This document shows positions 1,668 through 24,841 of a DNA stretch of 25,550 bases, piece by piece; positions within the stretch are counted from its first letter, which is position 1; the number at the start of each line of letters is the position of its first letter. The notes beneath the pieces are model-generated. The model searched no databases. It saw only the letters and a list, made by a program, of their open reading frames with translations, and had not been told where the DNA came from. This DNA is from an uncultured archaeon (GTDB lineage: Archaea > Asgardarchaeota > Lokiarchaeia > Sigyniarchaeales > Promethearchaeaceae): contig CAYRPF010000008.1 of assembly GCA_964426185.1 (NCBI GenBank), positions 1 to 25,550 of the forward strand, written 5' to 3'. The position numbers were made by a program, and so were the translations under genes.

Positions 1668-4229
1668 GTGACACCAGCGATGTTATCACGGAATTACTCT
1701 CGTAGTTCTGCCTATTATACCCCATCTTTTATCATTCGAAGCATTTTGAGAGGTATTGATCACCTTCTTCGGGTGAATTGGCATAAGAATGATGGAATTT
1801 TTACAGATACGGTAGAGTTTCTAGATCCTTCTGCAGGGATATTGAAATTTTCCCAAGAAATGATACGTTTTGCCCATGAACAACTTTTTCAACCTCAATT
1901 TAATAAATGGCTTTATGAACATTTTATCCCTTATAATTTTGCGTTTGACATCGATCAAGGTGCAATTAGAATAGGACTTGAACAACTGTATTCCTATGTA
2001 AACGAAATTATCGAACAAGACCATTCTACAGCAGCTAATTCTCTTTCAGCCAATATTTCATCTTCAGATATCAATTCATCTTCAGATATCGATTCCTCCA
2101 AGCCGCTGAACCCCACTTTAGCAGAAGAATACTTTCACAGAAATCGTGTTAAATATCAATATAATTTACCAAAATTTCACGTTTACCAGCGAAATCCTCT
2201 TTCCGATCCCGAAAATTCACTGATAAATGGAACGCTTCTGCCTCAAAAAGAAAATTCGCTTTTAATTATTTATGGAAATCCTCCTTATGCCGTTAGTTCT
2301 CAATCAAAAAGTTCATGGATTACAGAGTTAGTTAATGATTACAAGACCAATCTTCATCAGCAGGGTACAAAGCGCCTCAAAGGTTTAAAAGGGATTCAAG
2401 ATGACTACGTAAAATTTGTGCGCTATTGCCAATGGTTGACGGTTGATCAAGGTCAACCTGGTATTGTTGCGTTGGTGCTTAACAACTATTTTTTGGATGG
2501 AGATATATTTCGGGGTATGCGGAGTAGCTTGTTGGAGAGTTTTAATACTATTTATATAATTGATCTGTTTGGAGATCCAAAGAAAGGGGTTCCTATTCCT
2601 ACTTCATCCCTTGAAATGCCCTCTTCTGTGAACGACGGGGGTCAGAATGAAGAAAGAGATCAGAATATATTCGAGATTCAAACTGGAATTTGTCTTTTTT
2701 TCGGGGTCTCCAAAATATCTAAAAATTCCAAAAAAAGAATAAAAAAACCCGCAGAAATATATTATTGTGGGTGTTATGGTTCCATTTCGAGAAAAACAGC
2801 ATTTTGCAATCGACAATTTAAAGATCTTCCATTTGAAAAAGTAGAAATGCAACCAGATTTTGCTTTCCGCCCGATATCTGCTGAAGAGAAAAGAATTCAA
2901 CAAGAGTATGATAAATTTTGTTATATGCCAGAAATTTTCCAAGCAAATATAATCGGCATTCAATCTTTGCATGATACTCTCATCACTCATCCTGATCGAG
3001 AGCAACTAATCCACATTCTCACCTCATTTTATGACGGAACTTATGATCGGATTATAATCACCGATACTAAAGGGCAACAGTGGGTAAAATCAAATGGGGT
3101 GGTTTATCATGATGCCCGTGACTGGAAAATCGCCGATGGTAAAAAAGGATCTTTGGAACGGGCTATAAATTCCATCCAACAGTGGCAGTGGCGCGGCTTC
3201 GATCGATGGTGGGTGGCTTATGATAAGTACTTGATGACAAAAGGTTCCAGCAGTTATCGCTTAATGCAATTCATGTATCCTTGGCAGAATAATGTGGCTA
3301 TTGTTGTATCTCGCAAATCTCGGAAAGCCACCGGCGGATCAAGTGTTTTAGCCACGAATATTTTGGCCGAATCTCATTGCGTGGAAGGAGGGTTTGGAAT
3401 AGGTGATTATGTATTTCCATTAAAGATTTCATTGTTAAATTCCCGAAAAAATCATTGGGATTCACCCCTAACTGTTGATTCCTATAATTTCACCCCTCAT
3501 ATTTGGGATTATTTTTCACCCAGTGAAACACCCTCCCCTGAAACATTATTTGCGTATATATATGCTGTGCTATGGACCCCAATATACCGCAACCGTTATC
3601 AACAGTTGCTAAAGAAGGATTTTCCTCGAATCCCTATTCCGAAAGATTTTAAATTACTGCAAGAATTTGCAAAATACGGCTCTACTTTGCTCTCTTTGCA
3701 TACATTTGAATTTTCTGATCCCCAAATTTCTACCGTGATCAAAACAAAATATCCCGTTAGTGAAAATCGCAAACCTATCATAATTTTTCCAAAATTTGAG
3801 CCGCAAGAATCTCGTATTTATTTTAACCACAAATCTCCTTCAGAATCGTTTTGGATTGGTGGTATTTCTCAAGCAGTATGGGAATTTGAAATTGGAGGGC
3901 ATAAACAGATTCAACAATTCTTGCGACATAGAACTGTGCAATCTAGTATCAGTTCTGCTCAAAAATATTCGCAACAAGCTAAACCATTCAAACAGCTCAA
4001 AAAATCCAAAAATTCTAACAAATCTAAACAATCTATCAAATTCAAACGATTTCAGTTTACCCGAGCATTAAATGACACAGAATTACAACGCTTACTGGAA
4101 ATTTGTTATGTAATTTCAGAAACTGTTCAGATTCAATCTAGTATAGATTCAAAATTTCTTCAAATATTGAAATCCGTGAATTTCCAGAACAATTCTCTCA
4201 TTAACCAAGAAGAAATCGCGAAGAAATAA
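1668..4229 (+). CDS. N6-adenine DNA methyltransferase with type ISP-like C-terminal specificity domain (no nuclease or helicase part)
   Basis: YYTP (motif X), FLDPSAG (motif I-like), YGNPPY (motif IV), DDYVKF, FRGMRSSLLESF, DQNIFEIQTG, and YIYAVLWTPIYRNRY...DFPRIP / VWEFEIGG, typical of type ISP C-terminal domains. Confidence 0.85.
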   Translation: MTPAMLSRNYSRSSAYYTPSFIIRSILRGIDHLLRVNWHKNDGIFTDTVEFLDPSAGILKFSQEMIRFAHEQLFQPQFNKWLYEHFIPYNFAFDIDQGAIRIGLEQLYSYVNEIIEQDHSTAANSLSANISSSDINSSSDIDSSKPLNPTLAEEYFHRNRVKYQYNLPKFHVYQRNPLSDPENSLINGTLLPQKENSLLIIYGNPPYAVSSQSKSSWITELVNDYKTNLHQQGTKRLKGLKGIQDDYVKFVRYCQWLTVDQGQPGIVALVLNNYFLDGDIFRGMRSSLLESFNTIYIIDLFGDPKKGVPIPTSSLEMPSSVNDGGQNEERDQNIFEIQTGICLFFGVSKISKNSKKRIKKPAEIYYCGCYGSISRKTAFCNRQFKDLPFEKVEMQPDFAFRPISAEEKRIQQEYDKFCYMPEIFQANIIGIQSLHDTLITHPDREQLIHILTSFYDGTYDRIIITDTKGQQWVKSNGVVYHDARDWKIADGKKGSLERAINSIQQWQWRGFDRWWVAYDKYLMTKGSSSYRLMQFMYPWQNNVAIVVSRKSRKATGGSSVLATNILAESHCVEGGFGIGDYVFPLKISLLNSRKNHWDSPLTVDSYNFTPHIWDYFSPSETPSPETLFAYIYAVLWTPIYRNRYQQLLKKDFPRIPIPKDFKLLQEFAKYGSTLLSLHTFEFSDPQISTVIKTKYPVSENRKPIIIFPKFEPQESRIYFNHKSPSESFWIGGISQAVWEFEIGGHKQIQQFLRHRTVQSSISSAQKYSQQAKPFKQLKKSKNSNKSKQSIKFKRFQFTRALNDTELQRLLEICYVISETVQIQSSIDSKFLQILKSVNFQNNSLINQEEIAKK
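2057..2090 (+). repeat. Tandem repeat TTCATCTTCAGATATC x2 (18-nt period) in a Ser-rich loop of the MTase
   Basis: Copies at 2057-2072 and 2075-2090; encodes SSSDI-N-SSSDI. Confidence 0.8.
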
Positions 4230-4673: not shown

Positions 4674-5711
4674 TTAATGTAATAAATCTTGATAAAAACT
4701 TTGGGCATTTTTCCAATAGATCTTCTCTAAGGTAGATTTCGAGAGGTTCAACCCATTAATTACTGTTTTATTCCCATTTTCGGGATCGGGAAATGGTAAA
4801 GGCACATTTCTTAAATCTGTTTCAAATAAGGTGTGAAATGTGAAATAACGGGTGAGAAAATATTTTTCAGGTGAATTATCTCGAGTCCACCCGAAGCTTA
4901 AATCTGTACCAAAAAGAATTCGATCGGAATATTTTTCAATAAAATCTCGTGATTTTTCTGGATTTCGACTCAATACCCGCCCCATCCATCGCGCCGATCC
5001 TGTATCAATCATTAAATTTGGATAAGTATCTAACCATCGGGCCAATTTAGGTAGATTTTCGGGCTGGGCTCCGAAGTGTGCGACTTGGAATTGAATTTTC
5101 GGATATTGATCCATCACTTGCTCAAAATCTTTCAAATGTTCTGATTTTGTGCCATATTTTGATGCGGGCTGATATTTCTTTTCATACCAAAGATCTGGGT
5201 CAGAGATATGTATGAGAAATTTCAGACCCAAAGTTTCAATAGTTTCAAATATGGGGGCAAATAGGGGGCTGGATAAACCATTAACTTTTATATCCTTAGT
5301 TGATATGTGAAATTCTTGCTCAACATAATCCTTCCATCTTGGTGCAAACCAAAATTTAACCATGCGGTATTCTTGGCTGTAAATTTCCTCAATCATTTCA
5401 GTAGCAGCTTTAGCTCCACCCTCCAATAGGGTTTTACTGCGAAGAAATCTTATGGGAATAAAGCGATCGGGGTAATTAGCATTTAATTCTTTCATTAGAT
5501 CTTCATCGATTATAGCGGCAATTTGGGTGATGTGATTAGCATCGGCAACATTTAAGACTTTATCAAAACCGGTGAAATCGCCATTAGGTCCCAGATGTAA
5601 ATGTGTATGCGCATCAATCTTCAATCCGTTGTATTTTGGAGGCAAAAAATGCCAATCAGGTCCCATTAAGCGAAATATATAATTTTTAAAAGTTGAAGTG
5701 ATAGTTATCAC
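4674..5711 (-). CDS. Amidohydrolase superfamily (Amidohydro_2-like) metal-dependent hydrolase
   Basis: IDAHTH (HxH), IHISDP, VAHFG and DRILFGTD metal-ligand motifs; KIYWKNA C-terminal motif. Start codon uncertain. Confidence 0.88.
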   Translation of the reverse strand: MITITSTFKNYIFRLMGPDWHFLPPKYNGLKIDAHTHLHLGPNGDFTGFDKVLNVADANHITQIAAIIDEDLMKELNANYPDRFIPIRFLRSKTLLEGGAKAATEMIEEIYSQEYRMVKFWFAPRWKDYVEQEFHISTKDIKVNGLSSPLFAPIFETIETLGLKFLIHISDPDLWYEKKYQPASKYGTKSEHLKDFEQVMDQYPKIQFQVAHFGAQPENLPKLARWLDTYPNLMIDTGSARWMGRVLSRNPEKSRDFIEKYSDRILFGTDLSFGWTRDNSPEKYFLTRYFTFHTLFETDLRNVPLPFPDPENGNKTVINGLNLSKSTLEKIYWKNAQSFYQDLLH

Positions 5712-5796
5712 CTAATTATCATAGAGTTGGAAAGGTTCAATCAATTTTAAGGGGGGGAAGCGTATAAGCTTATTGATTTCAGAATTAATTTACTCG

Positions 5797-7587
5797 CTAT
5801 AATACAATTTCTTGACCGGGAATCTGCCAAGGCCGATAGATTCGTTCATAATCTTGAAATAGTGCATTCATTCCATTTGTAATCAGTAGATCTGTCCAAT
5901 GAAATACTGAAGTTTGTCCATGTTTTTCTTTCCGAATGCGACCGAAAAAGTTGGCTAGAAAAACGGGTAATATATTCTGCCGCAGTGATTCAGGGAGGTT
6001 GTTATTTTTTAGCGATTCAAGGCAGATTTGTTCTAAATGAAAAAAGGCCATTTTCATCTGTTTATTGACATGCAAGCATTTCAGTCTAAAATTTGCATGA
6101 TTTTCGGGATTATCGGAGACCTTAAGATTTTTTACCATTTTTTGCAGTTTTCCGCTGGCTTTCATGATAACTTTAATGGTATCTAAAAAATCTGGGATTT
6201 GATGCAGAGAAGGTTCCAAGGCTCGGGTCCATGGGGTATTTCGGGTGATTTTATTATAAAAATAAATTTGTGGTAGAGATATTTTCGGATTTAATCGGGA
6301 AATTAAAGGAAGATCATGCATATAATATCGAGTTTCTCCCGTTCCTGCTACATGAATCTGAGGCTTTATGGTGGAAGAAACTAAGAATTGTCGAGAATCG
6401 ACCCTGGGAGTGAGTCTAAATCGTAAATCCCATAAGTCTGGCTTTTCACTGGCGGTTTCTATTTGGATTATCTTTTTACATTGATCACACACCCCTTCTA
6501 AAATAATAGAATGCATATTCGCTGCAGATGAAATTGCCCGAAGTGTAATTCTTCGGCCATGACAGTCTGGAGTGGAACAAACTGCAAAAAAAGGTACAAA
6601 ATCTTTTTCAACGGCTCGAAGTGTAGATCTAAATCCATATGCTTCCAAAATTGAAAGAATCTCTTGATAATTTCGGATATATTCTTCTCTATTCTTGAGT
6701 AAATATTCATAATGAGGTAGAAAAAGAGTTTGTAAGCGTGGATCGGTGGCATTCACAAAAGTGTAACCATAATCTCCGATAATATTACTAAGAACGCCGA
6801 TTAATTGACCAAACCAACGCGTGTAAGGAGGAATGTGGGAATCACTTGATAAACTATTAAAATACGCGGTTTTTAATAGAGTTAATCCATGTTCCAAACG
6901 TGCTTCCCATAATTGGCGTTGTTCTGAATTTTTGGTCACAGTCTTAAATGAAAAATTCATAGAATTACGGAAATCTTCCAGAATACTTTGAAATTCTACC
7001 TCAGAAGGTAACGGAAGATGGCTAATAGTGCTTTCTGTATATAATTTTTCCAATTTTTTTGGAATATGAAGACTTTTTCCATTTTCCGCATTAATACTGG
7101 GAATTACGGTTCGAGTCAATTCACGATGAACTTTATCGTAATCTCCAATAAAAAGAAAAGGAAGTAGGGAAAAAGAAGTTTTTTGCTGAGAATGATACCA
7201 AGAATTCCGCGCCAAAATGCCACCGCAAGCGATTTTATTCAAAAGAAAACGCTCACCTCCCAAAAATTTAGGCTGATGTCCGACTTCCAAACAAGCTCCT
7301 GTTTTGGTGTAAATCTCTAAATTTTTTTCCACCCGTTCAGTCCAAACTCCTAAATTTCGCGTTGTTGATTGAAAAATTTCCGCAATTTTATGTCGTAATT
7401 CAATGTTTTCTTGATTTTTGTCCTTTGGTATAAGTTTAGCGGCATTTTTAAGGCAATTTGAGGCGGAATTTGGGATTAACTCAGCGAGCTGCAAAGTGCT
7501 ATTTAATTCACCCCATTTTTTATTCGCTTGCTCCGGATTTTCTGCAAAATTGGTGTATAAAGCAAGGGGATCAGTTTCTCTGGTCAT
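5797..7587 (-). CDS. bshC: Divergent BshC-like ligase (bacillithiol cysteine-adding enzyme family)
   Basis: EVGHQPKFLGG...NK (cf. BshC TGQQ.GL..GP.Y...K), PFLFIGDYD...EL (cf. PVFW...EDHD..EI), LTPRVDSRQ...HVAGTGETRY (cf. FSPNV..RP...YVGGPGEIAY); directly downstream of a BshB1-like gene. Confidence 0.72.
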   Translation of the reverse strand: MTRETDPLALYTNFAENPEQANKKWGELNSTLQLAELIPNSASNCLKNAAKLIPKDKNQENIELRHKIAEIFQSTTRNLGVWTERVEKNLEIYTKTGACLEVGHQPKFLGGERFLLNKIACGGILARNSWYHSQQKTSFSLLPFLFIGDYDKVHRELTRTVIPSINAENGKSLHIPKKLEKLYTESTISHLPLPSEVEFQSILEDFRNSMNFSFKTVTKNSEQRQLWEARLEHGLTLLKTAYFNSLSSDSHIPPYTRWFGQLIGVLSNIIGDYGYTFVNATDPRLQTLFLPHYEYLLKNREEYIRNYQEILSILEAYGFRSTLRAVEKDFVPFFAVCSTPDCHGRRITLRAISSAANMHSIILEGVCDQCKKIIQIETASEKPDLWDLRFRLTPRVDSRQFLVSSTIKPQIHVAGTGETRYYMHDLPLISRLNPKISLPQIYFYNKITRNTPWTRALEPSLHQIPDFLDTIKVIMKASGKLQKMVKNLKVSDNPENHANFRLKCLHVNKQMKMAFFHLEQICLESLKNNNLPESLRQNILPVFLANFFGRIRKEKHGQTSVFHWTDLLITNGMNALFQDYERIYRPWQIPGQEIVL

Positions 7588-7592
7588 TGTGG

Positions 7593-8318
7593 TTAATTCT
7601 CTTTTGTGACTTCATTATTGGAAAAAGTAGGTGAGAAAAATACATCCGTCAAGCAAATAATTTCGGGACTAATGAAACCTTCTGCGTATTTAACTCCGCT
7701 TTGGGATCCCAACCATTGTGCTCTGTCCTCCAAATTCTTGATCAAATGCTGGTTGGCGGGATTTGCTGTAAATTGAGAATGATATGTCTTCAAAGCTTCG
7801 ATTTTTCGTGCAAAAAATGGGGAAACATCCACCGTAAAATCTAACTCCCGCGGTTTTTTCAAATGACTGTGTTCAAAATAGAAAATCTGGGGTATCCAAT
7901 AAGGGGGATATTCTGAATCAGTTTTACTGAGTTTCGCTTGAAATCGAGCAGCATTTACCAGTTCATGTGCGTGTATATGATCTGCATGCCAATCATGGTT
8001 TGGATGGGTTATTACTACCTTAGGTCGAAATTTGCGAAAAATATCCCCAAGTTGGATGCGGTAACCGAGTTTATTTTCTAAATAGCGATTAGGCCATTCT
8101 AAAGTTAGACGAGAGAAAATTCCCAAAATTTCGGCAGACTTTTTGGCTTCTTTGGCTCGTGTAATTGGGTCACCGTAAGGAGTGGGTTCTCCATTTGTAA
8201 GATCAATAATTACTACTTTTTTTCCCATTGCGACTGTTTTTGAGATCAATCCGCCGCATCCTATTTCAGCATCATCGGGATGGGCGCCCACAATTAGTAA
8301 ATCGGTATCAGACATCAT
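7593..8318 (-). CDS. bshB1: PIG-L/LmbE family N-acetylglucosaminyl deacetylase, BshB1-like
   Basis: GAHPDDAEIGCGG, DLTNGE, R..EA..SAEILG, HADH and YAEGF motifs. Confidence 0.88.
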   Translation of the reverse strand: MMSDTDLLIVGAHPDDAEIGCGGLISKTVAMGKKVVIIDLTNGEPTPYGDPITRAKEAKKSAEILGIFSRLTLEWPNRYLENKLGYRIQLGDIFRKFRPKVVITHPNHDWHADHIHAHELVNAARFQAKLSKTDSEYPPYWIPQIFYFEHSHLKKPRELDFTVDVSPFFARKIEALKTYHSQFTANPANQHLIKNLEDRAQWLGSQSGVKYAEGFISPEIICLTDVFFSPTFSNNEVTKEN

Positions 8319-8335
8319 TTAAGTAGATTCCATAT

Positions 8336-9358
8336 TTATTTTTGAGAATTTAGCTTGCACATTAAATAAATTTCACAAGTTGGAGAACACCATGAAGTGG
8401 AAAAGCAACAGCACCTCTCTATCTCTTGGGTGGTTATTTGGATGTGAGAAGAATTGAACAAGGTCCTGATTTGCCTATCTATTTTAGATTGAATTTCTTT
8501 GAAATTTTCCTTGGTAATTTTCTCATATTCAAGAAATGAATTCTTGTAAATATCTAATAATGGTTTAATTTTAAGAAAACTGGCCCTTGGATTCATAGTC
8601 TTAATTAATTGACAATATCTTTTTAATCGGTGTTCTGCCCTGTCAAATATAAATCTGTGACTTCTCTCCTCAGTTAAAATGGTTTCTCTATTCTTATAAA
8701 TCAAAGGAATAGGGATTTCTTTAATCTTCCAACCAAGCTGCTGTCCCTTAAGAAGCATTTCTATCGGCATCTCATAACCTGTTAGAGTTAAATGTAAATC
8801 CTTAATTGAATCGACTCGGTGAGCTTTCATACCACAGAAACTATCAGTTAACTCTAAACCGAAATGGGATAAAACAGCTGTAATGATGCTGTTTACTAAG
8901 AATCGATCTTTCCAAGGAGAGTGCCAGAATAAGTCCGAAATAGCATAACGAGTCCCTGAAAACAAGTCGGTTGAATAATTTTTATCGTTCTCAGCCCAAA
9001 TCGCCTCGATAAATTTTGAAAGATAATCGCTGGCATGCTGTCCATCCATATCAAAAGTGATAACCCAATCATAACCCTTTTCTTGGCTATATGAAAATCC
9101 AGTGCGTAAGGTAGCACCGTATCCTTTATTTTGTTTCTCGTGAATTACGTATCCTCGGTTGGGATGAATAGAGTGCCATTGTTCTAAAATTTGTTGACAA
9201 TTATCCTCTGAACCATCATCGATAATGAGAAGATCAATAGGCTGGCGATATTTAGTTCTTAAACTGTCTTGAACCCGAGACAATCTTTCCAAATTTTCTA
9301 ATATCACATTTCCTTCATTGTAGCATGGAATTATGATAAGTATTCTCAATTGAGTCAT
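8336..9358 (-). CDS. Glycosyltransferase family 2 (DPM1/polyprenol-phosphate GT-like) with Cys-rich C-terminus
   Basis: IIPCYNE, IDDGSED, NKGYGA, TFDMDGQH (DxD), GTRY, TDSFCGMKA, EIPI; no obvious TM helix; tail CCCFSTSWCSPTCEIYLMC. Confidence 0.9.
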   Translation of the reverse strand: MTQLRILIIIPCYNEGNVILENLERLSRVQDSLRTKYRQPIDLLIIDDGSEDNCQQILEQWHSIHPNRGYVIHEKQNKGYGATLRTGFSYSQEKGYDWVITFDMDGQHASDYLSKFIEAIWAENDKNYSTDLFSGTRYAISDLFWHSPWKDRFLVNSIITAVLSHFGLELTDSFCGMKAHRVDSIKDLHLTLTGYEMPIEMLLKGQQLGWKIKEIPIPLIYKNRETILTEERSHRFIFDRAEHRLKRYCQLIKTMNPRASFLKIKPLLDIYKNSFLEYEKITKENFKEIQSKIDRQIRTLFNSSHIQITTQEIERCCCFSTSWCSPTCEIYLMCKLNSQK

Positions 9359-9827
9359 ATGGCACCCCTTTTTATAAGATAAATCTACGCTACTAGGTAG
9401 ATCTTCTTTTTATTTTCCATTTGTTAATCTTTCTATTCACGCTATTAACGATATTTTATATCAGTTCATTCATAAAACTATCTATTATTGCGAATATTAA
9501 TTTCCTAAAAAAGGTAAATTATCGCAAAGTGCCACATACTTTTCGCTTAGAAATTATTATGTTTTTTATTATAACTAAAGAAAAAATACACTCCTTAAAT
9601 CTTCATTACATCTTCAGAGGGGAATATTCTGTATTCTTTTCAAATCGACCCACCAGGAGAAATATTTTCCCGAGTCAATTCTTCGTAAATAAATGATATA
9701 ATGTAGGATTTTGGTGTGAAATAATTTTTATCCCAAAAATATTAATATCCAATTTAGGATTCTTATAATAAACCTTTTCATTATACTGGTTGTATAGGAA
9801 TATTTTGGATATCGGGAGATCTAAGTT

Positions 9828-12055: not shown

Positions 12056-12160
12056 AGCCTTGTAGTGTAGTGGCCAAACTGAAGATGCTTTCTGTATCTT
12101 CTGGGCGACGCATCGCGGGCCTTGACCCCGCTGACCGAGGTTCGAATCCTCGCAAGGCTA
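12056..12160 (+). tRNA. trnQ: tRNA-Gln(UUG) with a ~32-nt intron at position 21/22 (about 12078-12109)
   Basis: Acceptor stem AGCCTTG/CAAGGCT + A73 (A1-U72, archaeal Gln identity); D-arm GTGT-AGTGGCCAA^GCAT; anticodon arm GCGGG-CCTTGAC-CCCGC; T-arm CGAGG-TTCGAAT-CCTCG. Spliced length 73 nt; CCA not encoded. Confidence 0.92.
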
Positions 12161-15573: not shown

Positions 15574-17394
15574 TTAAATCAAATAACTGCGTAATTCATT
15601 AATATTACGGTCAATCTTTCGCTGATTAGATCCCATTTTCTTTTCTAAATCATTAGCCAATTTATCATAGGCGGCTTTTGAAGGTAGTTTTCCTTTTCGA
15701 TATCGGTTGTTCAAATTTCGCAGACTATCCTTCAAAGAAATCTTTTCTGCTTCAAGATAATCCAATTTCTGCACGATATTGGCCACTGCAGAACCTGATT
15801 CCAATAATTCCTTTTTGAATGGAATCAGTTCTTCTGATAATGATTTGAGCTTGGCGCTCAATGTCTTTTCTTCTCGAATGTAGGCCTTCTTTTGGATCTT
15901 TCTACGGAGAAGATTTTGCTCTAAGGTATCTAATTCTATCATTAAGGCATTTTTCTCTTCATAAAGTGTGACAAATTGCTGTAATTCCTTGATAGGAATT
16001 GCGGTAGCACTGATAACTATTTCCTCTTTATGTTCACGCCTTGAAGCTTGCACAATGTAGAGAGCGCTAATAGCCATAAAGACCAGAGTAAAAATAAGTG
16101 CACGATCGATCATAAGTGCACCGTTAATCCGGTAGGATACATCGAAAATGGTATGATGGAATGGTGTGATATAACTTTGAGTTGTTTTAAAAACAATACT
16201 TCGAGCTGTTTCTACAATTTGTTCGTCTGGGAAATTCATTCTTATAATAGAATTTGCATCCATTAATTCTACCTGCACATTGGAGTGAACGATAAGATAA
16301 TCACATCGTGTAGGATATAAATCAATAGCAAAATTCTTCTTGCCGAAGTTGTTTGAGTAATAATCTTCAAGTGGGAGGTTGTATGAGATATAATACATCA
16401 TTTTTTGGCCGTATTGCATGGGTGCTCGATTAGCAATAAAATATACCTTAATATCTATAAACCCATTGGAGTTTGCACTTTCTGCTGGCTCCACACCTTC
16501 AATTTCTCCTAAGTCATCGTATACCTTAAAATTGCTGTAGCTGGCGGGAATTTGAAAATTCAATTGCGTTCCGTAATTATTTGAAAAGAATTGCACTTCA
16601 TGTTTTTCTACGATTTTTATGTATCCCCAAGGATTAACTGAAATCGTTCGTTCAACATTATTTAATTGGAATATTTTAGTTTCAGAATCAACGAAGGAGA
16701 TGCTGTTGGAAATATCGGCAAATGCTGAAGCTGATCCTGGGAAAAAGCGATGTACTGTAGGTAAATCATCAAGTGGACCAACATAGTTTGTAGGATCAGT
16801 GATTTGAACATTTTGAGCAGATTCAGCAACATGAATCTCAGATGTATAATAGTTAATTGGAAATGGAGATCTAGGTACTAATTGAGTAAACACAACCCAT
16901 CGATCCATTACTGATTGAAAATTAATAAAACCCTTTAATGCAACTACCACGTTAATTTTTTTTTCAGAAAAGGGCAATAAAGGCTCGTTAAGAAGGATTT
17001 CCATAATTGAGGTTTGGTTAAATTTCAAATTGGATAGTTGACAAGATAACGGTCCCATTGTTTCATCATATGATTGGAAGAATATGATTTCTTCTGCTTC
17101 TTGATCCGTTAATCCTACTAACACTGAGAAATGACTATTGGGACCATCATTTACGAAAAGATACGAATCTTTATACACGATATATCCACTTTCATTAACT
17201 TCGATAACCCTGGTAAAATTTCGAATATATATATTTGAATCCACTTCAGTGGTAGAACTTGAAGATGGTTTGGTGTTTTGTGCAATTGGAGTTTGATTTC
17301 CTCCTTTCCACCCTTGTACTAAAAAGGGAGTCAAGAAAAGCATCAAGATTCCAGTGAATATTATAAATTTGACAACAGATTTTTGTCGTGACAT
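15574..17394 (-). CDS. Ribophorin I (OST1/RPN1)-like oligosaccharyltransferase subunit
   Basis: Signal peptide; two related beta-rich lumenal domains (NFTRVIEVNESGYIVYKD; NVERTISVNPWGYIKIVEK, cf. ribophorin I LER.IEVSHWGNI.VEE; VYDDLGEI cf. YRDEIGNI); single TM; helical/coiled-coil cytosolic tail. Confidence 0.75.
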   Translation of the reverse strand: MSRQKSVVKFIIFTGILMLFLTPFLVQGWKGGNQTPIAQNTKPSSSSTTEVDSNIYIRNFTRVIEVNESGYIVYKDSYLFVNDGPNSHFSVLVGLTDQEAEEIIFFQSYDETMGPLSCQLSNLKFNQTSIMEILLNEPLLPFSEKKINVVVALKGFINFQSVMDRWVVFTQLVPRSPFPINYYTSEIHVAESAQNVQITDPTNYVGPLDDLPTVHRFFPGSASAFADISNSISFVDSETKIFQLNNVERTISVNPWGYIKIVEKHEVQFFSNNYGTQLNFQIPASYSNFKVYDDLGEIEGVEPAESANSNGFIDIKVYFIANRAPMQYGQKMMYYISYNLPLEDYYSNNFGKKNFAIDLYPTRCDYLIVHSNVQVELMDANSIIRMNFPDEQIVETARSIVFKTTQSYITPFHHTIFDVSYRINGALMIDRALIFTLVFMAISALYIVQASRREHKEEIVISATAIPIKELQQFVTLYEEKNALMIELDTLEQNLLRRKIQKKAYIREEKTLSAKLKSLSEELIPFKKELLESGSAVANIVQKLDYLEAEKISLKDSLRNLNNRYRKGKLPSKAAYDKLANDLEKKMGSNQRKIDRNINELRSYLI

Positions 17395-22672: not shown

Positions 22673-24841
22673 TTAAACCAAAAGGGGTGTCAAAAGTCCC
22701 ATTCCGCCGCCGATCCGCACGAAAACCACCAAAAACATCGTAGCCGTCAGCGACATTACCGTAATCAATGTATTAATGGATGGTCCTGCCGTGTCTTTGA
22801 ACGGATCGCCAACAGTATCTCCAGTAATACTGGCTGCATGAGCTAAGGTTCCTTTTCCGCCTAAATGTCCGTCCTCTATGTATTTCTTAGCGTTATCCCA
22901 TGTACCGCCCGAATTTGATAATAATAATGCGAAGGTAAGGCCGATAAGAATTGTTGAAGCCAAGAAAGCGCCAAGACCTTGAATTCCGAAGAGTATTCCG
23001 ATCAACAATGGAGATCCAATTGCCAAAATAATTGGAACAGTGAGTTCCTTTAATGAACCTTTAGTGGCAATGTCGATGCATCTTTCGAAGTCGGCTGGTT
23101 CTTCGCCAGTGAGGATTTTCGGATTTTCTTCAAATTGTCTTCGAATTTCTTTGACCATAATTTGAGCGTTTCTATCGACTCCGAAGATAAGGACTGCGGA
23201 GTAAACAGATGGAACTGCAATACCCAAGATGGCGCAAATCATGATAACTGGGTTCATCAAATCCAATTGATAAATGCCGTTGGTGTCAAAGAAGTTTAAG
23301 TTGATTCCGTATGAAGAAGCCACATTCTTAGCATCTTCCATGAAGGAGTAAAGTAAAGCCAATACGGTTAAAGCGGCAGCACCGATAGCGAATCCTTTGG
23401 TGATGGCTTTGGCTGTGTTGCCTGCGGAGTCTAATCGGTCGCACAATTGAATAACTTCTTCATCAAGTCCACCTTGCTCGGCGATACCTCGAGCGTTGTC
23501 AACGATTGGGCCGTAGGCATCATTAGCGACAATGGTTCCCACAATAGCGAGCATACCAGTGGAGGCGTTCGCCACACCAACTAATCCATCTAATGCATAA
23601 GCGATTCCCATAGCTATTGCAATTCCAATTACTGGAGGGGCGATGCTCATCAATCCATATGAAAATCCAGTTAAAATATTCAAAGCATGGCCTTGTTGAG
23701 AAGATTCTGCAGTGGCACGAGTTGGTCGTTTTTCGTCGTTAGTGAAGTAATCAGTGGTGAAACCGATAACTAATCCGGCTAACACACCGAACACACCTGC
23801 ACCCCAGTTTGCCCATAATCTGCCTGGCATTGCAGTATCTAACGGAATTCCTAAGGTCATAAAGAAGGTGAACAATGCACTAATTCCAATAAATAGGATA
23901 GTGGCTATGTATGTTCCCATGTTTAAGGCTTTTCCTGGGCTGTTTTTTACCATTTTGCTGATCAAAAAGATACCCATAATGGATGCGAACAAACCAGCAG
24001 CGCTGATAACCAATGGGAAGGATGTAATTGTTGTTGTGTTTGGGTCCATCATGTCTTTTCCTGCATTGACCATTTCAGAGAATGCTAAAAGCATAGCACC
24101 TAAAATGGAAGCGACATAGGAGTCAAATAAGTCTGCACCCATACCAGCAATATCACCCACGTTATCACCTACGTTGTCTGCAACAGCAGCTGGGTTTCGA
24201 GGATCGTCTTCTGGTAATGAATATTCTATTTTTCCTACAAGGTCGGCTGCAACATCAGCGGTTTTTGTGTAAATTCCTCCACCAGCTTTAGCAAATAATG
24301 CAATTGAGGAAGCCCCAAATGAGAATCCTAAGATGTATTTCGGTTCACCAGAGAAGAAGTATAAAGCCCAGACACCACCTAAAGCGGCACCTGTCACGAT
24401 TAAGCCCATTACAGCGCCTCCAAAGAATGAGACGTTGAATGCAGGGGATAATCCCTTAGTAGCGGCTTGAGCGGTTTTTGCATTAGCATCAACTCCGACA
24501 CGCATTCCGAGCCATCCTGCCCATCCAGAGGCAAGAGAACCGAGAATGTATGAAATGACCATTAAATACCATGGCACAGCTTCAGTAGATGCTCCGATTC
24601 CATATGCCAGACCGATAACAAGAGCAAAAACTCCGACAAAAATTGCCAATGCACTATATTGGCGCTTAATGAACGCACCAGCGCCGTCTCTGATATATCC
24701 TTGAACGGTCACCATGGCTTCATTGCCTGGGTCTGCATCATCTACTTTTTTTTTTAGTAGGAATGCTACCACAAAACTGACAATAGCTGCCGCTAAAACC
24801 AACCAGAGCGTCCATATTTGAATCACAATTCCTTGAATCAT
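22673..24841 (-). CDS. hppA: Membrane-bound ion-translocating pyrophosphatase, K+-independent signature (probable H+-PPase)
   Basis: GGGIYTKTADVAADLVGKIE..PEDDPRNPA..ADNVGDNVGD, DAYGPIVDNA.GIAE, GNTAKAITKG, GDTVGDPFKDTAGPS; many TM helices. Confidence 0.96.
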   Translation of the reverse strand: MIQGIVIQIWTLWLVLAAAIVSFVVAFLLKKKVDDADPGNEAMVTVQGYIRDGAGAFIKRQYSALAIFVGVFALVIGLAYGIGASTEAVPWYLMVISYILGSLASGWAGWLGMRVGVDANAKTAQAATKGLSPAFNVSFFGGAVMGLIVTGAALGGVWALYFFSGEPKYILGFSFGASSIALFAKAGGGIYTKTADVAADLVGKIEYSLPEDDPRNPAAVADNVGDNVGDIAGMGADLFDSYVASILGAMLLAFSEMVNAGKDMMDPNTTTITSFPLVISAAGLFASIMGIFLISKMVKNSPGKALNMGTYIATILFIGISALFTFFMTLGIPLDTAMPGRLWANWGAGVFGVLAGLVIGFTTDYFTNDEKRPTRATAESSQQGHALNILTGFSYGLMSIAPPVIGIAIAMGIAYALDGLVGVANASTGMLAIVGTIVANDAYGPIVDNARGIAEQGGLDEEVIQLCDRLDSAGNTAKAITKGFAIGAAALTVLALLYSFMEDAKNVASSYGINLNFFDTNGIYQLDLMNPVIMICAILGIAVPSVYSAVLIFGVDRNAQIMVKEIRRQFEENPKILTGEEPADFERCIDIATKGSLKELTVPIILAIGSPLLIGILFGIQGLGAFLASTILIGLTFALLLSNSGGTWDNAKKYIEDGHLGGKGTLAHAASITGDTVGDPFKDTAGPSINTLITVMSLTATMFLVVFVRIGGGMGLLTPLLV

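Follow-up and report, generated by a model that had tools for sequence, protein, structure and literature searches.

The stretch of DNA analysed here, referred to below as the window, comprises 25,550 nucleotides from an uncultured archaeon of the order Sigyniarchaeales (Asgardarchaeota; GenBank assembly GCA_964426185.1, contig CAYRPF010000008.1). It contains a block of four genes, coding for a family-2 glycosyltransferase (GT2), a BshB1-type deacetylase, a divergent BshC-like ligase and an Amidohydro_2 protein. We read this block as a dedicated three-enzyme pathway with an accessory gene, homologous in logic to the synthesis of bacillithiol, and put the probability of this reading at roughly 0.55. 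We are considerably more confident that the GT2 is the dedicated first enzyme of the pathway, in place of BshA. The product is probably a bacillithiol-related sugar-amino-acid compound, and is most likely a low-molecular-weight cysteinyl-hexosamine thiol whose linkage or aglycone differs from that of bacillithiol, the chance that it is a thiol being about even.

Enzymes encoded by the block

All four genes are on the minus strand. A preliminary description of the window, made from its sequence, had already reported four co-oriented genes, and the open reading frame list gives the same coordinates, with gaps of 17, 5 and 85 bp. The last of these gaps holds if the amidohydrolase gene starts at the GTG at 5711, but becomes 130 bp if the ATG at 5666 is the true start. 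The start of the GT2 gene is separated from a divergent TPR gene by an AT-rich region of 470 bp (9359-9827, to which no strand applies), in which a TATA-like run lies immediately 5' of the GT2 ATG. This is presumed to be the promoter region of the GT2-bshB-bshC-like unit.

The BshC-like protein (5797-7587, 596 aa) has no Pfam match at E<=10 and does not reach the cut-off of the BshC family PF10079 (27 bits). On the curated model TIGR03998 it scores 14.5 bits (E 0.012) against a cut-off of 265.8. Its homologues are nearly all from Asgard metagenome-assembled genomes, some of them labelled BshC by NCBI. Close homologues are named in their sources as Promethearchaeota, Harpocratesius and Lokiarchaeum, and the analysis took its Asgard assignment from these names. 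Nothing usable for the identification of the protein came from Pfam, NCBIfam or phmmer against the PDB, and it was identified instead by means of a family profile and a fold search. The profile, built from 28 homologues (A1), finds B. subtilis BshC (4WBD) in the PDB with E 1.1e-10 over three colinear stretches, in which the N-terminal GQQ..G..K of BshC lies opposite HQPKFLGG....NK, and AGPGE..Y opposite AGTGE..Y. The AlphaFold (AF2) model, with a predicted local distance difference test score (pLDDT) of 91.9, has a class-I aminoacyl-tRNA-synthetase-like Rossmann fold with a four-cysteine β insertion. The cysteines concerned (C337, C342, C367 and C370) are invariant in 28/28 sequences, including those linked to BshA. 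A Foldseek search with the model gives 4WBD first (E 8.2e-16, TM-scores 0.59/0.64, 587 columns), followed by the class-I aminoacyl-tRNA synthetases LysRS, MetRS, ArgRS and CysRS, with the mycothiol ligase MshC at rank 35 (E 0.15). On the evidence of profile and predicted structure, the protein is a genuine but very divergent member of the BshC family. The original suggestion that it is BshC-like is thus borne out by the family profile and the structure, but not by the curated single-sequence models.

The GT2 gene (8336-9358) codes for a soluble DPM1-like protein of 340 aa, which matches PF00535 with 85.7 bits and has a GT-A domain with a DXD motif and the motifs of the DPM1 family. The DPM1-like character noted previously is seen also in the closest solved structures, which are PfDPMS (5MLZ, E 3e-10) and ArnC (9HWJ). 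Invariant residues in the family alignment (A2) are D48/S50/D52, D103-x-D105, S134-G-x-R137-Y138, K178 and R244, and the internal amphipathic helix of the DPM1 family (FLVNSIIT..) is kept. The top match in NCBIfam is the polyprenyl-phosphate-GalNAc synthase PpgS, whose cut-off is 370 bits and which the GT2 matches with 77, while the models for other characterised members (ArnC, AglJ and dolichyl-phosphate hexose transferase) give 36-39 bits against cut-offs of 316-529, so that none of these NCBIfam models is matched at equivalog level. No 19-residue window reaches a Kyte-Doolittle mean of 1.6, the highest such mean being 0.9-1.5 over 11 family members, and no transmembrane (TM) helix is predicted in the GT2 or in any of the other three proteins of the block. 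The protein ends in a helical extension of about 70 aa and a Cys-rich tail. This tail (window 8336-8413) recurs in the Asgard orthologues, which end in CxC..C motifs, and in bacterial relatives, which end in CCC, CC or CxC; the recurrence suggests a conserved role of some kind (metal, redox or anchoring).

The deacetylase gene (7593-8318, 241 aa) encodes an LmbE/PIG-L zinc deacetylase (PF02585, 90.5 bits). Its earlier description as BshB1-like is upheld by TIGR04001, on which it scores 182.7 bits, just over the cut-off of 182.5; its orthologues score 200-201 bits. The MshB models give 43 bits against a cut-off of 224. Among solved structures it comes closest to TT1542 (1UAN), BcZBP (2IXD) and S. 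aureus BshB (6P2T), with E 1e-30 to 1e-32. The protein retains equivalents of His12, Asp14, Asp15, Arg53, His110, Asp112 and His113 of BcZBP, whose catalytic and metal-binding roles in BshB and BcZBP have been described (PMC4101496). Since all the catalytic and metal residues are kept, it follows that the GT2 must supply an N-acetylhexosamine conjugate, and that the ligase would act on the freed amine. The position of BcZBP Arg109 is occupied by Trp. This was considered as a marker of the aglycone pocket and rejected, because the position is aromatic in BshA-linked Asgard deacetylases too.

The fourth gene (4674-5711) codes, from the GTG, for a metal-dependent TIM-barrel protein of the Amidohydro_2 hydrolase/decarboxylase family (345 aa; PF04909, 60 bits against a cut-off of 26.4), in which the metal-binding motif H35-x-H37 and Asp270 is visible. 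Its ESM Atlas record begins at Met16, corresponding to the ATG at 5666 and a protein of 330 aa. With this start the gap after the bshC-like gene is AT-rich and has a TATA-like run inside it, and the gene is probably transcribed from its own promoter. A subfamily or substrate could not be assigned: there is no PDB match at E<=0.01 and no NCBIfam match, and the Atlas gives Amidohydro_2 only. Most of the nearest Atlas cluster comes from Planctomycetota.

Conservation of the block and absence of BshA

The order to which the window belongs has three families, in which the BshC-like protein was found in 7/13, 19/135 and 2/4 genomes. In the 20 loci that were fetched from the order, the gene order GT2 - BshB - BshC-like is kept without exception. 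A GT2 orthologue (E<=1e-40) is present as a single copy in 28/154 genomes, all of which have the BshC clade; in a 29th BshC-positive genome the GT2 gene is cut by the end of the contig, and none of the 125 genomes of the order that lack this BshC clade has a GT2 orthologue. The genome of the window has no paralogue of the GT2 at E<=1e-5. The linkage of GT2, bshB1 and bshC, whose conservation across Asgard archaea had been left for checking, is thus conserved in all the loci fetched from this order. In the order, the Amidohydro_2 gene adjoins the block wherever the contig extends far enough. It is on the same strand in the family of the window (f1) and convergent in family f3, the adjacency being constant. 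The flanks differ between lineages, and nothing beyond the four genes is shared. The cultivated Lokiarchaeum ossiferum (6,035,313 bp) carries the block, and a closed genome of the same genus does not. In one genus only (g6, L007-L010), a protein of about 220 aa without a Pfam match, in one to three tandem copies, adjoins the block upstream of the GT2 gene (for example, L007:139-804).

In a tree of BshC proteins, those linked to a GT2 form a single clade, with a Shimodaira-Hasegawa-like approximate likelihood ratio test (SH-aLRT) support of 100 and a stem length of 0.94. They score 14-32 bits on TIGR03998, compared with 65-86 bits for the Asgard BshC proteins linked to BshA. The deacetylases show the opposite trend on TIGR04001, with 183-201 bits for the GT2-type block and 54-95 bits for the PIG-L proteins of BshA-type Asgard clusters, and the deacetylase of the block therefore looks the more bacterial of the two in sequence.

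BshA was sought with TIGR03999, which has a cut-off of 273.7 bits. A domain search of the window proteins gives no GT4 (family-4 glycosyltransferase) gene, as had been noted before, and no bona fide bshA was found in the rest of the genome (92% complete), where the best match reaches 80 bits. Six GT4 genes there score 46-80 bits, and these are taken to be generic because 14/14 control genomes reach the same level. At E<=1e-45, BshA is found in 0/13, 0/135 and 0/4 genomes of the three families (0/152 in all), several of them single-contig. By contrast, 146/400 genomes of the phylum have BshA above the cut-off. In other Asgard classes it is usually on the same contig as bshC and no more than about 2 kb from it, or up to about 6 kb in family f15; examples are G337:C54, G370:C8 and G095:C21.

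Two further groups of Asgard genomes show other arrangements. In family f18 (G081-G091), BshA is present at 405-424 bits in 11/12 genomes, while 0/12 match the BshC-like protein of the window at E<=1e-10; their BshC may be of another, more bacterial type, or they may have none. In family f16 there is a third Asgard BshC clade (L027-L036, for example L027:4902-6623), in which BshA occurs in 1/22 genomes as a weak match, and no GT2, PIG-L or Amidohydro_2 gene lies within 8 kb. The f16 bshC has a class I/II aminotransferase gene beside it in all cases, and mostly ArgRS and LPG_synthase_TM genes as well. The same aminotransferase family flanks bshC in the BshA-type loci of family f31.

Outside the Asgard archaea, the closest GT2 proteins are soluble, about 250 aa long and encoded by Planctomycetota and bacteria related to them; they show 31-36% identity, with E 1e-37 to 1e-46. 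Their genes are directly upstream of one for a 500-560-aa protein without a Pfam match in 5/5 loci examined. Such pairs are found in Phycisphaerae and other Planctomycetota at L047:6001-8486, L049:4149-6629, L050:4108-6644 and L051:4264-6689, and the two genes sometimes overlap by 4 bp. The AF2 model of the bacterial partner (pLDDT 93.3) has BshC 4WBD as its top match (E 3e-11). Its family profile (A3) has no match in the PDB, and compared with the Asgard BshC profile using hhalign gives E 0.005 and a probability of 7%. A direct sequence link to BshC was therefore rejected, and the connection rests on the invariant motifs, which coincide in the alignment, and on the fold match. No deacetylase or Amidohydro_2 gene is linked to the pair in the five bacterial loci. 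We read these results as functional coupling of the GT2 clade to BshC-fold enzymes in two domains of life, and the Asgard block as a mosaic of an Asgard-type BshC ligase, a GT2, and perhaps an Amidohydro_2, of bacterial affinity, and the more bacterial-looking deacetylase. No claim is made about the direction of the swap, that is, GT2 replacing BshA or the reverse, since the base of the BshC tree does not resolve it.

Proposed pathway and alternatives

The sugar donor, acceptor and amino acid, as well as the thiol nature of the product, are inferred, and on this footing the pathway would run as follows. With a UDP-sugar as donor, the GT2 would attach an N-acetylhexosamine to an anionic acceptor, which could be a hydroxy acid or a phosphate ester. 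An anionic acceptor is compatible with the conservation of the basic residues R137, R152, K178 and R244, and the DPM1-like ancestry of the enzyme suggests a phosphate ester. GT2 enzymes invert, so that with a UDP-α-sugar as donor the product would be β-linked, unlike bacillithiol. The zinc deacetylase would then expose the 2-amino group, and the BshC-family enzyme would acylate this amine with an amino acid, by analogy cysteine, to give a low-molecular-weight thiol that would differ from bacillithiol in its anomeric linkage and/or aglycone. The Amidohydro_2 protein, probably transcribed separately, might supply or tailor the aglycone, or else recycle conjugates.

The genes found around the block in sister genomes favour thiol chemistry. 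In loci of family f3, two DinB_2 genes lie within one or two genes of the block. DinB_2 is the superfamily of the bacillithiol and mycothiol S-transferases. One of the two is present in 15/19 cluster-positive f3 genomes compared with 0/116 cluster-negative ones, and 4/15 of the copies are on other contigs. A thioredoxin-reductase-like gene adjoins the GT2 gene in one locus (L025), and adjoins bshC in two BshA-type loci. Amidohydro_2 and DinB genes also recur with BshC outside the GT2 variant: a GT4-type cluster (L053:3275-9510) contains PIG-L, Amidohydro_2, BshC, Thioredoxin_9, GT4 and two DinB_2/MST-like genes, the Amidohydro_2 protein there being of a different subfamily (24% identity).

A number of observations weigh against the proposed pathway. 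The genome of the window itself lacks any DinB_2 gene, and the evidence from thiol-related neighbours therefore comes from sister lineages only. No bacilliredoxin (Brx, TIGR04191), YtxJ (TIGR04019) or YpdA (TIGR04018) was found over cut-off in five genomes (G000, G142, G137, G312 and G015), where the search for partner proteins gave only generic matches to thioredoxin reductase (TrxR)-like proteins at about 80 bits. Every characterised close relative of the GT2 acts on a polyprenyl phosphate and not on a soluble acceptor. The BshC-like protein is highly divergent: when 1.84 billion representatives were searched exhaustively with phmmer, no more than 70 clusters came within E<=0.001. As for BshC itself, the evidence that it is a cysteine ligase is mainly genetic, and no in vitro reconstitution of the activity is known to us. 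Because the genomes are related, the counts of co-occurrence suggest more independence than there is. Finally, bacillithiol has never been detected in archaea (PMC7278568). In a 2025 preprint, a BLAST search of RefSeq turned up no archaeon that has the complete bacillithiol pathway (10.1101/2025.07.06.663066), and our literature search found no paper on a GT2-initiated bacillithiol-like variant. The absence of Brx, YtxJ and YpdA was also considered as a means of discriminating between pathways and rejected, as Asgard genomes lack all three whichever type of cluster they have.

The affinities of the GT2 suggest a lipid-linked alternative, in which, like PpgS, DPMS and ArnC, it makes a polyprenyl-phosphate-N-acetylhexosamine at the surface of the membrane. 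This would be deacetylated by the PIG-L-family enzyme while still on the lipid, in the way that PIG-L treats GlcNAc-PI, and aminoacylated by the BshC-like protein, the conjugate then being handed on to a surface polymer or lipid. The match to PpgS as the best in NCBIfam, the nearest structures (dolichyl-phosphate-mannose synthase and ArnC) and the invariant DPM1-family motifs, including the amphipathic helix, are all in line with this. Some true members of the DPM1-like family also have no TM helices and several soluble ones still use polyprenyl phosphates, so that a lipid acceptor is compatible with a soluble enzyme; and in one bacterial locus (L051) a GT-C-like PMT_2 gene lies two genes from the GT2 and BshC-fold pair. 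Set against these points, all four proteins of the block are predicted to be free of TM helices, neither a flippase nor a GT-C gene belongs to the conserved unit, whose flanks vary between lineages, the deacetylase scores as a BshB1, whose known substrates are soluble, and the genes near the block in sister genomes are for DinB_2 and thioredoxin-reductase-like proteins rather than for glycan assembly. We consider a lipid-linked product unlikely.

A second alternative is that the product is soluble but not a thiol, the BshC-like protein adding some other amino acid or carboxylate to give an N-acyl-hexosamine that might serve as a compatible solute, metal ligand or cofactor precursor. Because the protein is so divergent, its substrate may indeed differ from that of bacterial BshC: its clade sits on the long branch described above, with TIGR03998 scores well below those of BshA-linked proteins. 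The lack of bacillithiol-dependent partner proteins and of DinB_2 in the genome of the window fits such a product, and the bacterial GT2 and BshC-fold pairs without a linked deacetylase hint at varied chemistry within the superfamily. On the other hand, all ligases characterised at this glucosamine-conjugate step (BshC and MshC) add cysteine (PMC7278568). In sister genomes the block has DinB_2 and thioredoxin-reductase genes linked to it, and a related BshA-type cluster has DinB_2/MST-like and thioredoxin-like genes. On this evidence a soluble product other than a thiol is also improbable. That ordinary bacillithiol is made, with an unrecognised GT4 elsewhere carrying out the BshA step and the GT2 an unrelated neighbour, finds some room in the 92% completeness of the genome and in its six generic GT4 genes, but is very hard to sustain when control genomes have matches at the same level, BshA is missing from all 152 related genomes, and the GT2, which has no paralogue, co-occurs and co-localises perfectly with the BshC clade.

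Relation to known systems and significance

The proposed pathway shares with the BshA/BshB1/BshC system of Bacillus, Staphylococcus and Thermus the sequence of N-acetylhexosamine transfer, zinc-dependent de-N-acetylation and an ATP-dependent ligase of the BshC fold. It differs in starting with an inverting GT2 of the GT-A fold rather than with BshA, a retaining GT4 of the GT-B fold; in having a ligase that fails the curated BshC models and has the invariant four-cysteine insertion; and in including an Amidohydro_2 gene, lacking Brx, YpdA and YtxJ partners, and occurring in an archaeal host. Canonical bshA-bshC clusters in other Asgard classes have been noted at family level (Rawat and Maupin-Furlow 2020, PMC7278568). 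The BshC of these clusters belongs to the same family (it matches the BshC-like protein of the window in phmmer with E 1e-36 to 1e-63), and they have a PIG-L gene nearby, but BshA, at 285-424 bits, is beside bshC, and there is no GT2 and no orthologous Amidohydro_2.

The bacterial module likewise couples a soluble GT2 with a Cys-rich tail to a BshC-fold protein, although this partner is far more distant and lacks the four-cysteine insertion. With enzymes of the DPM1, PpgS and ArnC type, the GT2 of the window shares the GT-A fold and the DXD, SG(S/T)RY and interface-helix motifs, but it has no TM domain or known membrane partner, and its genomic partners are enzymes of cytosolic type. The mycothiol pathway (MshA/MshB/MshC) follows the same chemical logic, with a PIG-L-family deacetylase and a class-I aminoacyl-tRNA-synthetase-like cysteine ligase. 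However, MshC is a paralogue of CysRS, and as seen in the Foldseek ranking is only a distant match to the window model, and MshA is a GT4.

Elsewhere in the window are genes for a Ras/Roc-like small GTPase (866-1501), a Type ISP restriction-modification enzyme (Type_ISP_C and Eco57I methylase, 1668-4229), a ribophorin I homologue (15574-17394) and a membrane H+-pyrophosphatase (22673-24841). A tRNA of 105 nt on the plus strand (12056-12160) was found by Rfam (47.6 bits) and missed by ARAGORN; its length implies an intron, for which any reading of the anticodon loop must allow.

We know of no sugar-based protective thiol that has been detected in archaea. The block is a concrete candidate pathway for one, and it is present in a cultivated organism. 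It also shows that a BshC fold need not go together with BshA, and may help to explain what BshC requires for its activity. The existence of a GT2 clade that partners BshC-fold enzymes in both archaea and bacteria widens the search for thiols and aminosugar conjugates. More tentatively, a specialised soluble GT2 and a BshC-fold ligase could form an old and widespread core in Asgard archaea and Planctomycetota for making aminoacyl-hexosamines, of which bacillithiol would be only the GT4-initiated branch; the compound of this Asgard order would then be the first low-molecular-weight thiol based on a sugar to come from an archaeon, and would have either a β linkage or a new aglycone.

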